Shown: positions 1,041-61,285 of the stretch, in pieces
Position numbering within the stretch: position 1 is the first letter of the stretch
How the letters are laid out: every line of letters starts with the position of its first letter
Origin: Eledone cirrhosa
Taxonomy: Eukaryota
Assembly: GCA_964016885.1 (NCBI GenBank)
Contig: OZ024763.1
Coordinates: forward strand, 5,022,001 to 5,086,000
Direction of reading: 5' to 3'
DNA length: 64,000 nucleotides
Notes under the pieces: generated by a model
Databases searched by the model: none
Seen by the model: only the letters and a program-made list of their open reading frames with translations
What the model was told of the DNA's origin: nothing
Position numbers and translations under genes: made by a program

Positions 1041-1315
1041 GACTATATAAATAAATAAACACGCCCTAAAAGTTTTAAAGAATGAAATATCGAGAAAACT
1101 ACAGACCATAATACATATATATCTATATATTTGCATGTGTGGTTCGAAATACACACACACACACACTCACACACGCACACACACACACACACGCACGCCC
1201 CCCCCACATATATAAATGTTTTGCTACTATTCTATGAGAAAATTCCAATAGCATTTTCTAATATAAATATATGAAGGTGTGTGTGTGTAATAAATACATA
1301 TATATATATTATGAG

Positions 1316-1490
1316 TACAGCTTAAGCAAAGAATTTCTGCTTTCAAGCCTATTACGGCATATTTTGAAACTTTAATCTGTATTAATAATAAATATTTGCT
1401 CTACGGGTTTATATATACTTTTTTTTTAATTCATATATATAATCCTTATTGAATCCTCATCAGATTTTAGTTTTCGTAATTATTATTATT
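1316..1490 (+). mobile_element. Fold-back family C, degenerate copy
   Basis: Homologous to 2257-2486; inverted arm joined directly to the tail at AAACT. Confidence 0.7.
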
Positions 1491-2225: not shown

Positions 2226-2256
<31 letters not shown>

Positions 2257-2264
<8 letters not shown>

Positions 2265-2482
2265 TAACAGACTAAAGTTTAAGCAAAGAATCGCTGCTTT
2301 CACCCTTAACGGGATCTTCTGAAACTAACCAGAAGATCCCGTTAAGGGTGAAAGCAGCGATTCTTTGCTTAAACTTTAATCTGTTATTTTAATAAATATT
2401 TGCTCTACGGTTCTTATATATTTGATATATATTTATCCTTATCGAGCCCTCTTTGGATTTTAGTCTTCAAATTTATTATTAT

Positions 2483-2486
<4 letters not shown>
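2257..2486. mobile_element. Fold-back element family C (about 65-bp inverted arms plus tail) between TA arrays
   Basis: Arms 2257-2321 and 2330-2393, 8-nt spacer, ~90-bp unpaired tail, TA microsatellite on both sides. Confidence 0.85.
2276..2326 (-). ncRNA. Hammerhead-like fold with variant core (CAGAAGA)
   Basis: AGUUU-CAGAAGA-U-CCC(guuaa)GGG-U-GAA-AGCA(gcgauucuu)UGCU-U-AAACU; stems I, II and III all pair; U4 is replaced by A. Confidence 0.55.
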
Positions 2487-2545
<59 letters not shown>

Positions 2546-2608: not shown

Positions 2609-3055
2609 AAATGTATGTATATATATATAGGAAAATGCATGTATTTATATATATATATATACATATATATATACATATATATATATATACATATATATAT
2701 ATATGTAAATGAATATATATATATATACATACATTTATGTATATATTTATGTGTGTAATATTCTGGTCTTTCTTTCCTCTGTTGGGGATTTTTTCCTGTA
2801 CCCAACTGTTGCAGCGGCGCCAGACCTCTCAGATGTATGGCGTTTGTCGGTGCCTTGTTAATTATATATCCTTTTTCTCCCCCAGCCCTAGAGATCACAC
2901 ATGTTACAAGATAAATGGTTAACACGCTGGCATCAAATAGACAACACATGGAGGTCACATTTACACTACTTTCAGAATGGAACAGTAAAGCGTCACATAT
3001 TTCTTAACCCAGGTTAAACACATCTACACAAATGTTAAATATAATCATATTATTA

Positions 3056-3505
3056 CCCGCGGTTAACTTTGCCTTTCATCCTTACGGGGTCGGTCGAGAA
3101 AATAAAGTACCAGTAATGCACTGGGGTAATTGCTGGCCTTGTGCCAAAAGTAGAAACAATTATTACCATCAGGCAGTAGATTGACAGTATTGGTAGAGCG
3201 TCGGACACCATGTCCTGCAGCCTAGAGTTACGGTCCTTTACGTTCTGAGTTCAAAACCCGCTGAGGTGAGCTTTGCCTTTCATTCTCCTAGGGTCGATAA
3301 AATAAAGTACCAGTAATACATTGATGGGGTCAGTTTCATCGACATTCAAATCGCTGGCTTCGTGCCCAGATCAGAAACCCCTTTTTAAGGTCGGTGGCTT
3401 GGTAGTATCGGCAGAGTGTTGGACAACATTCTTTGTGGCATAGTGTTACGTCTCTTTACGTTCTAAGTTCAAATCCCACCGAGGTCAACTTTGCCTTTCA
3501 TCTAT
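3056..3505 (+). mobile_element. Three head-to-tail SINE S1 copies
   Basis: Central domain CTTTGCCTTTCAT repeats at ~3067, 3271 and 3489; two have B boxes GAGTTCAAA/AAGTTCAAA. Confidence 0.85.
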
Positions 3506-3592: not shown

Positions 3593-3596
<4 letters not shown>

Positions 3597-3729
3597 AAAA
3601 TGTTTAACCCCGACGGCAGAGCTCAAGCCGTTTCGACGGCTATTTCTGGACGCCCACTCTACTACCCTAAGTATTGAGTACTCTGGTCCGTTATGGTCCA
3701 TCTGGTTCCTTACCACACTTCCTTCGTTA
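3593..3729 (+). mobile_element. Fold-back family A, internally deleted copy
   Basis: One inverted arm fused to the family A tail; TA flanks. Confidence 0.8.
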
Positions 3730-4083: not shown

Positions 4084-4086
<3 letters not shown>

Positions 4087-4278
4087 CGAAGGAAATGTGG
4101 TAAGGAACCAGGTGGACCATAACGCACCAAAGTACTCAATACTTAGGGTAGTAGAGTGGGTAATAGGAACCAGTAAGACCCCGACGGCTGAGCTCAAGCC
4201 GTTTCGACGGCTAATTCTGGACTGTCCAGAATTAGCCGTCGAAACGGCTTGAGCTCAGCCGTCGGGGTCTTACTGGTT

Positions 4279-4282
<4 letters not shown>
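4084..4282 (-). mobile_element. Fold-back family A, full copy
   Basis: ~59-bp perfect inverted arms centred at ~4223 plus ~80-bp tail, embedded in (TA)n. Confidence 0.9.
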
Positions 4283-5939: not shown

Positions 5940-5942
<3 letters not shown>

Positions 5943-6157
5943 CGAAGGAAATGTGGTAAGGAACCAGATGGACCATAACGCACCAGAGTACTCAATACTT
6001 AGGGTAGTAGAGTGGGTAATAGGAGAGAGTATGATCCCCGACGGCAGAGCTCAAGCCGTTTCGACGGCTATTTCAGGACTTTTTTTTTTTTTTTAGTCCA
6101 GAAATAGCCGTCGAAACGGCTTGAGCTCTGCCGTCGGGGTCATACTTTCTCCTATTA
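5940..6157 (-). mobile_element. Fold-back family A copy with poly-T spacer
   Basis: Same tail and arms; spacer is a ~15-nt T run. Confidence 0.9.
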
Positions 6158-6186
6158 CATATATATATAGAGGGAGATAGAGACAT

Positions 6187-6999: not shown

Positions 7000-7395
7000 G
7001 TTTCTACTTTTCTACTTTTGGCACAAGGCCAGCGCATTGGTGGTACTTTATTTTATCGACCCGACCCCGTAAGGATGAAAGGCAAAATATATATATATTG
7101 TATATATATATTATATTCCTATTACCCACTCTACTACCCTAAGTATTGAGTACTCTGGTGCGTTATGGTCCATCTGGTTCCTTACCACATTTCCTTCGTT
7201 ATAAGGGCGGTGGCTTGGCAGTATCGGTAAAGAGTCGGACACCATGCTTTGAAGCATAGAGTTACGTCCCTTTATGATCTGAGTTCAAATCCCGCCGAGG
7301 TTAACTTTGCCTTTCATCCTTACGGGGTCGATAAAACAAAGTACCAGTAATACACTGGGGTAATTTCTGGTCTTGTGCCAAAAGTAGAAACAATT
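6997..7395. mobile_element. Cluster: SINE S1 3' half (-, 6997-7087), family A tail (+, 7117-7202), full SINE S1 (+, 7205-7395)
   Basis: Each block matches other copies in the window. Confidence 0.8.
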
Positions 7396-7430
7396 AACAT
7401 TAGTTTCACGCTTGAGAGTGGGGGGTGGGG

Positions 7431-8032: not shown

Positions 8033-8108
8033 AAGTTGCCTACACTTTACCAATATATTGAATACCTTTTTTAACTGGTTATCCCTGACACAACTCGGGA
8101 ATCTACAT
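8028..8108 (+). mobile_element. Family B tail, diverged, between TA arrays
   Basis: ATATTGAATACC...CTGGTTATCCCTGACACAACTCGGGA resembles 41092-41140. Confidence 0.55.
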
Positions 8109-10813: not shown

Positions 10814-11256
10814 AATGGTGTCTGCAAGACTAGAAATATTTTATTCGAAGGAAATCACAAGGAAAGCTTTCCCGAGGTTTATTTCGAAGGAAACAGTTCT
10901 AGTCCTGTAGAAGCTATTTCTATATTAAATTTGTTGTTTAAACTCTACTAATGTATTGTTTCTACTTTTTGGCACAAGGCCAGCAATTACCCAGCGCATT
11001 ACTGGTACTTTATTCTATCGACCCCGGAAGGATGAAAGGCAAAGTTAACCTCGGCGGGATTTGAACTCAGATCATACAGGGAGGTAACTCTATGCTTCAA
11101 AGCATGGCATCCGACCCTCTACCGATACTGCCAATCCACCGCCTTTACTAATGTATCTCAACCGCCACAACCCTCTCAAGAATAAGTGGACGAAGACTAA
11201 TGTATTGCGTACTTTACATACTGTGGTTACATCCGATGTTAACCCAGGACTCATAT
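10807..11256 (+). mobile_element. Old family B fold-back element interrupted by SINE S1 (-, ~10956-11195)
   Basis: GAAACAGTTCTAGTCCTGTAGAAGC matches family B; target ACTAATGTATTG duplicated at 10947-10958 and 11196-11207; the B tail resumes after it. Confidence 0.8.
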
Positions 11257-46595: not shown

Positions 46596-46945
46596 GTGCT
46601 GCTGTACGGCTTTGAGACTTGGACACTGACCAAGAAACTCACTCAGATGGTGGATGGGTGCTACACGAGAATGCTGAGGATGGCTCTGAACATTAATCAG
46701 TATACACTGAGGATGAAGAATTCAGAGATGTACGGGAGCCTCTCAAAAGTCAGCTCGAGAGTGACACAGAGGAGACTGAGGTTAGCTGGACATGCTCACC
46801 GACATCCAGAGTTGACACTGCACTCAGTCTTCCTGTGGAAGCCCCTGCATGGACACACTGGAAGAGTAAGACCGAAGTTAACATGTGTTGATGCCCTAAG
46901 GACAGACACTGGTCTGATGGAGACGCAAGCCATGGCTGACAATAT
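46596..46945 (+). pseudogene. RTE-clade LINE reverse transcriptase C-terminal region, 5'-truncated at a TA array
   Basis: VLLYGFETWTLTK...DGCYTRMLRMALN...RRLRLAGHAHRHPE...LWKPLHG..GRVRP...DALRTDTG. Confidence 0.9.
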
Positions 46946-47304
46946 GAGTGAACATTTATTTAAACTTCAATACCGGAGTCCTGTTTATGTTTAAGCACGA
47001 CACGGCAAGGTACAGTACGGATAAAAAGAGAGAAATCAGCGATGAAAGTTCACCTCAGCTTGAACCTGTTTATTTCGTCATTGTCAGGCCGAACCCCCTC
47101 TTCAAAGTGAAACATAAAAACAAAAATCGACCCCCCCCCCCAGAAAACTCTCCCCCCAAACCAAAATAAAACTGGGATATGAAAACATAGAAGATAAGGG
47201 AAGGAACAAATGTATTAAATGTCGACATCTAAGACGGCAGATGATAGTTTAGGTTGGATCTTCAGGTGAATCAACGGCTCAACACAAACCTCTCTTTTCT
47301 TCTG

Positions 47305-48828: not shown

Positions 48829-49730
48829 GTAACTTTATTTCCGTGACTTATAATCTTTACTGGGGTGAGGAGGGGGGGGGGAGATTAAAAATTGAGAAAA
48901 TAAAACAAAGAAAACAAAATTAAAAAAACGAAAAAGAAAAAGAAGGAATCAACTCTCAAACCTTATATCAAACATTTCCATAGCAACGTGTTGTAATCAA
49001 TTATATTAAGGTTAAAAGTTTATACAAAGTATATACACATACATATACACATATATATATACATATACACACACATACTCATAAAATATATACACACATA
49101 CACACATATATATATATATACACACATATATAAATATACATATACACTCACATATAAATATACACATATATATACATATACACACACACATATATATAAA
49201 TATATATACACATATATATATAAATATACATATACACTCACATAAATATACACATATATATATATACATATACACACACATATATATATATATATATTTA
49301 TATATACATATATATAAATATACATATACAGTCACACATATTAATATACATATATATATACATATACACACACACACATATATATATATATACACACATA
49401 TATATATATATACATATATATATATGTACATATACACTCACACATATAAATATACACATATATATATATACATATACACACATACACATATATAAATATA
49501 CACACACACATATATAATATAAAGACCATTATCTTATTTATAGATAGGGCGGAAGTTCCAGTGCTGTTTATTTACACATAAATGTAGTTTAAGTAATTTG
49601 ATGTAACTGATACCAAGATAAAACGTAAAGGTTTTTATTTTAATCAGCAAAAGATATTTTCCTGGGATCAAAATTACTTGAAATAATAAAGAATTTAATA
49701 TTTTGTGAAACAGAAAAAGAAAGTTTTGTT

Positions 49731-50566
49731 GGAAAGTACTATAAATGCTGTAAAAATAATGAAGGATTTTATATTGAGTCAAATATATAGAAAAATAAAG
49801 TAATGGAAAGTACTATAAATGCTGTAAAACTAATGAAGGATTTTATATTGAGTCAAATATATAGAAAAATAAAGTAATGGAAAGTAATATAAATGCTGTA
49901 AAAATAATGAAGGATTTTATATTGAGTCAAATATATAGAAAAATAAAGTAATGGAAAGTACTATAAATGCTGTAAAAATAATGAAGGATTTTATATTGAG
50001 TCAAATATATAGAAAAATAAAGTAATGGAAAGTACTATAAATGCTGTAAAAATAATGAAGGATTTTATATTGAGTCAAATATATAGAAAAATAAAGTAAT
50101 GGAAAGTACTATAAATGCTGTAAAAATAATGAAGGATTTTATATTGAGTCAAATATATAGAAAAATAAAGTAATGGAAAGTACTATAAATGCTGTAAAAA
50201 TAATGAAAGATTTTATATTGAGTCAAATATATAGAAAAAAAAAGTAATGGAAAGTACTATAAATGCTGTAAAAATAATGAAGGATTTTATATTGAGTCAA
50301 ATATATAGAAAAATAAAGTAATGGAAAGTACTATAAATGCTGTAAAAATAATGAAGGATTTTATATTGAGTCAAATATATAGAAAAATAAAGTAATGGAA
50401 AGTACTATAAATGCTGTAAAAATAATGAAGGATTTTATATTGAGTCAAATATATAGAAAAAAAAAGTAATGGAAAGTACTATAAATGCTGTAAAAATAAT
50501 GAAGGATTTTATATTGAGTCAAATATATAGAAAAATAAAGTAATGGAAAGTACTATAAATGCTATA
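49731..50566. repeat. 74-bp satellite, 11 units plus a partial
   Basis: GGAAAGTACTATAAATGCTG... recurs at 49731, 49805 ... 50545. Confidence 0.95.
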
Positions 50567-50873: not shown

Positions 50874-51125
50874 AAGAATATTTCAGTTCGTTGCCCGACA
50901 GTTCTTGCTTTTCCCTCCTTTTCCTCTCATTTGCAGCATTTATAGTACTTTCCAATTTGTTTGACTAAATATTAAATTCTTTACTATTTCTATGACAAAA
51001 TTAGATAAAAATAGTAAAGAATTTAATATTTAGTCAAACAAATTGGAAAGTACTATAAATGCTGCAAATGAGAGGAAAAGGAGGGAAAAAGCAAGAACTG
51101 TCGGGCAACGAACTGAAATATTCTT
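50874..51125. repeat. ~115-bp near-perfect inverted repeat (fold-back/MITE-like)
   Basis: AAGAATATTTCAGTTCGTTGCCCGACAG... / ...CTGTCGGGCAACGAACTGAAATATTCTT. Confidence 0.9.
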
Positions 51126-51337: not shown

Positions 51338-52392
51338 TACCAGAGTCGGCTGAATATTTCATAGGCTGACCAAGATACTCTCATGGAATGACAAAATGAG
51401 GTTTATTTTTCAACATGCAAGATTTCACAGCTCTAGCATCACTCCTTCATAGGCTGACCAAGATACTCTCATGGAATGACAAAATGAGGTTTATTTTTCA
51501 ACATGCAAGATTTCACAGCTCTAGCATCACTCCTTCATAGGCTGACCAAGATACTCTCATGGAATGACAAAATGAGGTTTATTTTTCAACATGCAAGATT
51601 TCACAGCTCTAGCATCACTCCTTCATAGGCTAACCAAGATACTCTCATGGAATGACCAAATGAGGTTTATTTTTCAACATGCAAGATTTCACAGCTCTAG
51701 CATCACTCCTTCATAGGCTGACCAAGATACTCTCATGGAATGACAAAATGAGGTTTATTTTTCAACATGCAAGATTTCACAGCTCTAGCATCACTCCTTC
51801 ATAGGCTGACCAAGATACTCTCATGGAATGACCAAATGAGGTTTATTTTTCAACATGCAAGATTTCACAGCTCTAGCATCACTCCTTCATAGGCTAACCA
51901 AGATACTCTCATGGAATGACCAAATGAGGTTTATTTTTCAACATGCAAGATTTCACAGCTCTAGCATCACTCCTTCATAGGCTGACCAAGATACTCTCAT
52001 GGAATGACAAAATGAGGTTTATTTTTCAACATGCAAGATTTCACAGCTCTAGCATCACTCCTTCATAGGCTGACCAAGATACTCTCATGGAATGACAAAA
52101 TGAGGTTTATTTTTCAACATGCAAGATTTCACAGCTCTAGCATCACTCCTTCATAGGCTGACCAAGATACTCTCATGGAATGACAAAATGAGGTTTATTT
52201 TTCAACATGCAAGATTTCACAGCTCTAGCATCACTCCTTCATAGGCTAACCAAGATACTCTCATGGAATGACCAAATGAGGTTTATTTTTCAACATAGTT
52301 AATAAGATTAGTTGAAATTAATGGCATGGAAGATTTCACAGCCCTAGCATCATTCCATAGTCAGCCTATGAACCTTTCAGCCGACCCTCGTA
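51338..52392. mobile_element. Mariner-type MITE containing ~10.5 tandem 88-bp units
   Basis: ATAGGCTGACCAAGATACTCTC... period 88 from 51361; right TIR ...CAGCCGACCCTCGTA. Confidence 0.9.
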
Positions 52393-52404
52393 TGTATGTG
52401 TATA

Positions 52405-52449
52405 TAGCTGTCGAAACAGCCGGAGCTCAGCCGTTGGGGTCCTGAAAAT

Positions 52450-55157: not shown

Positions 55158-55468
<311 letters not shown>

Positions 55469-58509: not shown

Positions 58510-58871
58510 TATACTTGGGGAGGGTCATATTTGTGTAATAATATTGCCAGAATTAATAACAGAACACACTCACTGTTTGGTTGGTTTTCGCTTCTGTGTC
58601 TTTTATATCGGTTAATTTAATTTATTCGGTCCTCAATGTTACCATATCTGTATTTTTTATCGTTAGTCAGTCAATGGTAACATTGAGGACCGAATAAATT
58701 AAATTAACCGATATAAAAGACACAGAAGCGAAAACCAACCAAACAGTGAGTGTGTTCTCTTATTAATTCTGGCAATATTATTACAACAATATGACCCTCC
58801 CCAAGTATAACAATATTTGTTTCGACACACGATTTCATATAAAAAACCTCGCAAAACTAATTCATCGCCGT

Positions 58872-60211: not shown

Positions 60212-61285
60212 AGGCAGCGAATTGGCAGAGTCGTTGGGAACGTCGGATAGAATCCTTTATGGTATTCATATCTGCTCTGAGTTCAAATCGAGCAGAGGTC
60301 AACTTTGCCTTTCATCCATTCAAAATCGATAAAAAAAAGTACCAGTCAAGTACTGGGGTTGATTCTTCCTCTATATCTCTTTCTCGCTTTCATTCTCTCA
60401 TATCTGCTCTCTTCTCCCTGAGTTCAAATCGAGCAGAGGTCAACTTTGCCTTTCATCCATTCAAAATCGATAAAAAAAGTACCAGTCAAGTACTGGGGTT
60501 GATTCTTCCTCTATATCTCTTTCTCGCTTTCATTCTCTCATATCTGCTCTCTTCTCCCTGAGTTCAAATCGAGCAGAGGTCAACTTTGCCTTTCATCCAT
60601 TCAAAATCGATAAAAAAAAGTACCAGTCAAGTACTGGGGTTGATTCTTCCTCTATATCTCTTTCTCGCTTTCATTCTCTCATATCTGCTCTCTTCTCCCT
60701 GAGTTCAAATCGAGCAGAGGTCAACTTTGCCTTTCATCCATTGAAAATCGATAAAAAAAGTACCAGTCAAGTACTGGGGTTGATTCTTCCTCTATATCTC
60801 TTTCTCGCTTTCATTCTCTCATATCTGCTCTCTTCTCCCTGAGTTCAAATCGAGCAGAGGTCAACTTTGCCTTTCATCCATTCAAAATCGATAAAAAAAA
60901 GTACCAGTCAAGTACTGGGTTTGATTCTTCCTCTATATCTCTTTCTCGCTTTCATTCTCTCATATCTGCTCTCTTCTCCCTGAGTTCAAATCGAGCAGAG
61001 GTCAACTTTGCCTTTCATCCATTCAAAATCGATAAAAAAAAGTACCAGTCAAGTACTGGGTTTGATTCTTCCTCTATATCTCTTTCTCGCTTTCATTCTC
61101 TCATATCTGCTCTCTTCTCCCTGAGTTCAAATCGAGCAGAGGTCAACTTTGCCTTTCATCCATTCAAAATCGATAAAAAAAGTACCAGTCAAGTACTGGG
61201 GTTGATTCTTCCTCTATATCTCTTTCTCGCTTTCATTCTCTCACTCTCTCTATCCTTCTCTGGAAGAAATCTGCTGTATTCCGAC
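60212..61285 (+). mobile_element. SINE S1 whose B-box-to-tail segment is tandemly amplified 7 times (140-141 bp)
   Basis: TGAGTTCAAATCGAGCAGAGG at 60278, 60419, 60559, 60700, 60840, 60981 and 61122. Confidence 0.92.

Follow-up and report, generated by a model that had tools for sequence, protein, structure and literature searches.

Results

A hammerhead-like motif with A at core position 4 lies in an unequal hairpin insertion

Does a hammerhead motif that carries A in place of the canonical U at core position 4 represent a working natural variant of the ribozyme, or an inactivated motif of a lineage that is still mobile? The question is raised by a hairpin insertion at 2259-2485 of a 64,000-base stretch of Eledone cirrhosa DNA (the window, that is, the whole stretch analysed), for which a sequence-only reading had left both answers standing. 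The window is AT-rich and dense in microsatellites, with 28,705 of its 64,000 bases masked as simple repeats, and the output of a generic repeat finder was swamped by TA runs. The insertion, copy 1 of a family that we call C, lies within (TA)n and is laid out as follows. Statements from published work refer throughout to the sections of each paper covered by this analysis.

2229..2258, no strand assigned: (TA)n sequence tract left of copy 1, likely the target site
2259..2326, minus strand: short arm of copy 1, with the complete hammerhead-like motif and 22 bases past the predicted cut
2327..2329, plus strand: three inter-arm junction bases, from upstream template or untemplated
2330..2485, plus strand: long arm of copy 1; its first base is C3, and the predicted cut falls after 2370
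2486..2542, no strand assigned: (TA)n sequence tract right of copy 1

The short arm holds the whole motif without the tail and ends 22 bases past the predicted cut, and the long arm, which lacks the helix I 5' strand and thus half of helix I, has the tail that the short arm lacks and ends 115 bases past the cut. Because 62 of the 63 bases shared by the arms are identical, the insertion is young. The parts of the motif in the short arm are listed below.

2276..2326, minus strand: type I hammerhead topology found by descriptor scan, with the predicted cut between 2281 and 2280
2322-2326 with 2276-2280, minus strand: helix I, 5' strand AGTTT at 2326-2322 and 3' strand AAACT at 2280-2276
2321-2315, minus strand: first half of the core, CAGAAGA, with A4 at 2320
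2320, minus strand: A at core position 4, where the canonical core has U; the equivalent plus-arm base is 2331
2311-2313 with 2303-2305, minus strand: helix II, CCC/GGG, 3 bp, with a closing U.U at 2314/2302
2301-2298, minus strand: GAAA
2294-2298 with 2282-2286, minus strand: helix III, 5 bp
2283-2281, minus strand: cleavage triplet CUU; H17 is U at 2281, as the NUH requirement demands

Three helices of 5, 3 and 5 pairs surround the core on the minus arm with helix I open, which is the type I topology, and the core CAGAAGA (2321-2315) and triplet CUU (2283-2281) are as the sequence-only reading had given them. Copy 1 is canonical at 10 of 11 core bases, retaining C3, G5, A6, G8, A9, G12, A13, A14 and A15.1-U16.1, and the sole departure is the A at position 4. 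The G10.1-C11.1 closing pair is absent, and U.U stands there, as in the sister family B described below. Because U10.1-U11.1 is a known tolerated hammerhead variant (PMC3088659) and CUU with a G15.2-C16.2 pair occurs in published Penelope-type hammerheads (PMC4209133), A4 is the only unusual feature of the motif, as judged by the covered sections of these papers. All three helices sit inside one arm and not across the hairpin axis and are therefore not supplied by the palindrome.

A descriptor scan allowing one core change returned three matches in the window: copy 1, a canonical motif at 41013 on the plus strand and a match at 21793 on the minus strand. In a control of twenty block-wise dinucleotide shuffles of the window, the mean number of matches per window was 0.45 for the loose descriptor and 0.05 at stricter stem lengths, which copy 1 has. 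The match at 21793, with an exact CTGATGA...GAAA core, was not taken as evidence: it lies across the axis of a decayed palindrome that provides its helices, and it is probably an artefact. The decayed palindromic element that contains it spans 21600-21822 and is flanked by TA tracts. A search of the window with Rfam, by gathering score and also by E-value, gave no hammerhead; the canonical family B motif was missed as well, and the negative is therefore uninformative for copy 1.

It had further been claimed that the minus strand folds with all three stems. This topology can be drawn, but it is not the predicted lowest-energy fold (-5.6 kcal/mol versus minima of -8.8 and -9.4), and the predicted pair probability of helix I is at most 0.07. 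The canonical family B motif likewise misses its predicted minimum (-6.3 versus -9.4), so that predicted folding does not separate A4 from U4. An RNA spanning the whole copy 1 locus is predicted to form one long hairpin of -114 or -118 kcal/mol, which would bury the motif.

A4 recurs in a second, older insertion of the same family

Profile searches of the window found a family A at 7 loci, a diverged A2 at 4, family B at 4 and family C at 3. The second and third loci of family C are as follows.

1311-1490: copy 2 as a whole, older than copy 1
1311..1371, minus strand: short arm of copy 2, with core CAAAATA and A4 at 1365
1367..1490, plus strand: long arm of copy 2; it begins at the predicted cut, and 94 of 111 aligned bases are identical to copy 1
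1367..1371, plus strand: AAACT junction of copy 2, common to both arms; it complements the 5' strand of helix I and is also the 3' strand of that helix
56445..56496, minus strand: copy 3, a lone short arm that begins just before GAAA, without the first half of the core

Copy 1 has (TA)n on both sides and copies 2 and 3 on one side, in a window in which TA tracts are very common. Copy 3, which the sequence-only reading had not mentioned, passes uninterrupted through the predicted cut and shares its end point with the short arm of copy 1; AGTTT lies upstream of it and may be there by chance.

Position 4 is A in two insertions, copy 1 (in both arms) and copy 2; copy 3 begins after this position. 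The C3-A4 reported earlier for copy 2 is present, but its core has also lost G5 and G8. The chance of an independent U-to-A change at position 4 of copy 2 is ∼5% at its divergence, and copies 1 and 2 differ in helix II (GCC/GGC in copy 2 instead of CCC/GGG), which suggests different templates, both with A4. With two insertions carrying position 4, A4 is quite probably a lineage-level trait of family C. Copy 2 also keeps 13 of 13 helix pairs; when neutral decay was simulated at 14%, all pairs were kept in 4.9% of runs, a post hoc figure and a weak hint that the fold of copy 2 may have outlasted its chemistry.

No natural U4A hammerhead was found in the freely readable papers and text supplements searched, those of PMC3088659 included. 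The A4 form is most likely a decay stage. A full mutagenesis found low activity for mutants of the CUGA turn, the C3/G8 swap excepted (PMC9901934), and A4 is therefore likely to weaken the motif; natural U4C remains functional in a viroid (PMC3088659), so that some activity with A4 is possible.

The break of copy 2 falls at the predicted cut, where helix I supplies an overlap

As the sequence-only reading had noted, the plus arm of copy 2 starts right after the predicted cut: the long arm opens with AAACT (1367), the first bases after the cut, and the short arm ends in the same five. A random blunt break would fall at that one position in ∼1 of 115 cases, so the break is more than chance. What did not stand is its value as a sign of cleavage. 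AAACT is the helix I 3' strand, and a copy ending at the helix I 5' strand complements the other copy at exactly the cut position; cleavage, pairing of the copies during insertion and later slippage all predict the copy 2 junction, and the break is therefore not diagnostic. The same reading had offered AAACT microhomology as an alternative, and the overlap is indeed present: helix I makes the arm ends complementary there over 5 bases, and copy 1 contains AAACT at 2322 and 2371 only.

The predicted cut is crossed by 4 of 5 arms in family C and by all 4 arms of the two hairpins in family B. Most templates were therefore uncut, even those with a canonical core. The distribution of 5' truncation points, which had been proposed as a check, gave truncated long arms in 5 of the 12 two-arm loci of the window, at scattered positions, with only copy 2 at a cut site. 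Overlap joining is favoured by the older hairpin of family B (10816), whose arms meet at AGCT, a short self-complementary overlap that does not lie near a cut. In family A, neither of the two legible truncated junctions has an overlap of at least 3 bases, so that such joins are not the rule.

Sister families share the architecture, and arm starts point to a probable fixed RNA 5' end

The loci of the sister families in the window are given below.

3595-3727, 4086-4280, 5942-6158, 7117-7199, 19580-19776, 25939-26122, 55160-55358: family A
17792-17917, 40706-40791, 42705-42751, 52404-52443: diverged A2
40948..41141, plus strand: young copy of family B, of the same layout, with canonical CTGAAGA at 41013, a GUA site and U.U closing helix II
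10816-10925: older copy of family B, with a probable tail at 11200-11250
1779-1827, 8051-8100: tail pieces of family B

The young family B copy has identical arms and a palindromic loop III. Families A and A2, together the most numerous hairpin family here with 11 loci, retain at the position of helix II a stem-loop that includes one compensatory pair, and have a palindromic GAGCTC; they have no conserved GAAA core and no hammerhead core, and their junction bases are variable, including a T run at about 6081-6094. Their motif regions start C-A-G-A or C-G-G-A, and 9 of 10 family A arms read CAGAA and 1 of 10 CTGAA.

Arm ends cluster at the start of helix I. Among the family A arms that reach the 5' region, 8 of 10 begin at the same A and 2 of 10 one base later, the preceding base being variable, and families A, A2 and C all begin with AGT plus a pyrimidine. 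These starts suggest that the RNA has a fixed 5' end at helix I, perhaps the transcription start. The start of A, A2 and C may resemble an initiator, and an extra G at 2 or 3 junction ends could be a copied cap. We also considered that the AG at the 5' end may be a splice acceptor, as in Drosophila virilis Penelope (PMC4209133); this would not account for copies stopping just there.

Across A, A2, B and C, 12 two-arm loci share the architecture, each with a different junction, and the hairpins were therefore made anew at each insertion. The tails of A and B are firmly related in sequence (p = 0.002), and the corresponding values are p = 0.086 for the C long arm against B and p = 0.01-0.03 for the copy 2 short arm against A (36 comparisons, uncorrected). 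Because the sequence similarity of C to A and B is weak, the kinship of C rests mostly on architecture.

Several other repeats occur in the window. A very abundant SINE-like family (1491-1687, 3055-3502, 7199-7404, 10947-11148, 13355-13554 and many more) is often nested beside hairpin elements; one member abuts the copy 2 tail and one splits the older family B copy. These abundant short repeats resemble a cephalopod SINE. Two other long hairpins, 58510-58809 (with pieces at 19414-19473 and 27787-27846) and 50874-51125, have arms of ∼135 and ∼115 bases, and no hammerhead core was found in them. Tandem arrays lie at 43087-43531, 49681-50552, 51342-52296 and 60277-61243, with units of ∼88, 74, 88 and 140 bases, some derived from SINE pieces. 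Short reading frames at 46596-46991 (plus strand) and 31277-31507 (minus strand), which gave no Pfam match, resemble C-terminal remnants of non-LTR retrotransposon proteins.

Discussion

Overall, copy 1 is likely a Penelope-like insertion in (TA)n, and its A4 likely leaves the ribozyme weak or inactive while the family spreads. Between the two readings left by the earlier note, an inactivated but still mobile lineage fits better than a natural variant ribozyme because A4 occurs in two insertions, most templates were uncut, the family without a core is the most numerous here, and published data on the CUGA turn and on Penelope-type insertion agree (PMC9901934, PMC11167929). Penelope-like elements are known for a 5'-truncated copy in inverted orientation, a tail on one side only and insertion into (TA)n (PMC8557442), and pairs of their hammerheads on opposite strands have been described (PMC4209133). 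In vitro, a purified protein of the Penelope type nicks both strands and extends them from two internal start sites on the RNA, and RNA with a dead ribozyme is inserted no less well than the wild type, so that cleavage is not needed (PMC11167929). The inverted 5'-truncated copy and the one-sided tail were found here as the short and long arms of the 12 two-arm loci, and this layout argues for membership of the Penelope-like elements. Against this explanation count the small number of independent insertions that show position 4, only two, and the other 10 core bases of young copy 1, which are intact as continued selection for cleavage would leave them.

A linked reverse transcriptase or GIY-YIG gene was sought among the translated stretches, and none of the 140 queried (of 142 listed) had a Pfam match; a truncated or non-autonomous piece would lack such a reading frame. 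Octopus Naiad consensus sequences, compared by four short motifs and by eye, gave no match in the portion of PMC8557442 covered; one chance match was to another entry. The window holds no direct tandem of family C, as in a partial-tandem pseudo-LTR. In a scan of bacterial and archaeal genomes the helix III region matched one locus, which is without core or tail and was judged chance, and the phage and plasmid collections gave no match.

The insertion could proceed as follows. An endonuclease would nick a TA tract on each strand, with reverse transcription starting at two internal sites, ∼22 and ∼115 bases past the cut position. Both target strands would prime copies of uncut RNA that run to the fixed 5' end at helix I, and the two copies would be joined end to end, head to head. 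Owing to the self-complementarity of helix I, a copy ending at the 5' end would be able to pair with its partner at precisely the position of the cut. Either such pairing or a later slip between two AAACT repeats might then have given the copy 2 junction without cleavage, and with cleavage dispensable the core would be free to drift.

For the junction alone, it may be that copy 2 began as a complete hairpin of the copy 1 kind, one arm of which was later lost through slippage between AAACT repeats; this is compatible with a dispensable ribozyme and which we hold possible though not probable. Excising the stretch between the AAACT at 2322 and that at 2371 of copy 1 yields the copy 2 layout, copy 2 is old, and palindromes favour such deletions; other old hairpins here (10816, 17792, 21600), however, keep both arms. 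We regard it as quite unlikely that the motif with A4 functions as a natural variant, perhaps as a dimer or with the help of a protein, and that RNA cut at CUU was the template of copy 2. In favour of this, copy 1 is intact in its three helices and in 10 of its 11 core bases, and A4 is found again in copy 2; from a cut template, the copy ends would pair over exactly these 5 bases with no overhang, at a position that a random blunt break would seldom hit (∼1 in 115). Outside this locus, the natural U4C keeps enough activity in a viroid (PMC3088659), and the hammerhead of an anole element cleaves only with protein (PMC11167929). Yet in family C 4 of 5 arms extend across the cut, helix I complementarity alone gives the same copy 2 junction, the core of copy 2 itself lacks G5 and G8, CUGA-turn mutants are low in activity (PMC9901934), and helix II, only 3 bp and closed by U.U, belongs to a fold that is not the predicted minimum. 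The fuller account, in which a working A4 hammerhead leaves in copy 2 an in vivo record of cleavage and B, C and A form a series from canonical through variant to core-less with RNA starting at helix I, is doubtful to the same degree.

It also seems unlikely that the hammerhead of the family is an ordinary U4 one and that A4 arose by mutation, locally or in a small subfamily. In favour of this, no more than two insertions inform on position 4, the arms of copy 1 may stem from one RNA and copy 2 is decayed; position 4 does change, as shown by U4 in family B and by the one CTGAA arm against nine CAGAA in family A. The ∼5% chance of an independent change in copy 2 and the helix II difference, which suggests different templates both with A4, speak against such a mutation. 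A foldback or miniature DNA transposon with a hammerhead likeness by chance is very improbable. It could account for the lack of a linked protein, for the 0.45 chance matches of the loose descriptor per shuffled window and for the lack of an Rfam hammerhead match, although Rfam also misses canonical B. The strict chance rate, however, is 0.05 per window, the helices lie within one arm and not across the axis, and family B has a canonical hammerhead at the same place. Matching terminal inverted repeats around a fixed interior were not found: the inverted repeats are unequal, with arms ending 22 and 115 bases past the cut, and the junctions differ among copies and by locus. The reading that we prefer is a Penelope-like insertion with a dispensable ribozyme, and the abundance of the sister family without any core is counted as support for it.

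Compared with known systems, family C is like the type I hammerheads of Penelope-like pseudo-LTRs (PMC4209133) in its short helix I, core ending GA-U and G15.2-C16.2 with CUU; alike CUU rows in the supplement alignment of that paper come from Philodina roseola and Chrysemys picta. It also shares with that set the opposite-strand pairs, the known ones being mostly solo truncated copies with low activity in vitro. In contrast, every row examined there has U4, which their descriptor requires, whereas family C has A4, a 3-bp helix II closed by U.U, not G-C, and a helix III of 5 bp that is not minimal. Poseidon of the green anole (PMC11167929) is similar in its two internal start sites that define the tail, priming of both strands, AT-rich targets and unneeded cleavage, but its tail is 30-40 bases against ∼93 here; family C differs further in its ∼200-base hairpin products and in that no reading frame was found. 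Neptune and Naiad (PMC8557442) likewise insert into (TA)n and have a 5'-truncated copy in inverted orientation and a tail on one side, and Naiads spread without canonical hammerheads; family C, unlike Naiad, shows no match to the octopus Naiad consensus ends examined, and assignment to a clade would need a protein. Among the natural core variants in the covered sections of PMC3088659, U10.1-U11.1 is shared, and the known variant at position 4 is the viroid U4C, where family C has U4A. Animal non-LTR retrozymes (bioRxiv 10.64898/2026.07.22.740005) are likewise short, non-coding, Penelope-linked and equipped with a type I hammerhead, but they are head-to-tail tandem repeats and copy 1 is a head-to-head hairpin; no head-to-tail tandem units, each with a hammerhead, were found within the window.

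In Penelope-like elements the hammerhead could be a processing signal, a protein-binding fold or a passenger. With three families of one insertion layout and a canonical, A4 or absent core, a single 64-kb window bears on the importance of cleavage for spread. Should the A4 form cleave, the tolerated core is widened and searches that require U4 miss such motifs; if it does not, A4 is an ordinary step in ribozyme decay. The final, poorly understood step of Penelope-type insertion could also be approached through the fixed 5' end at helix I.
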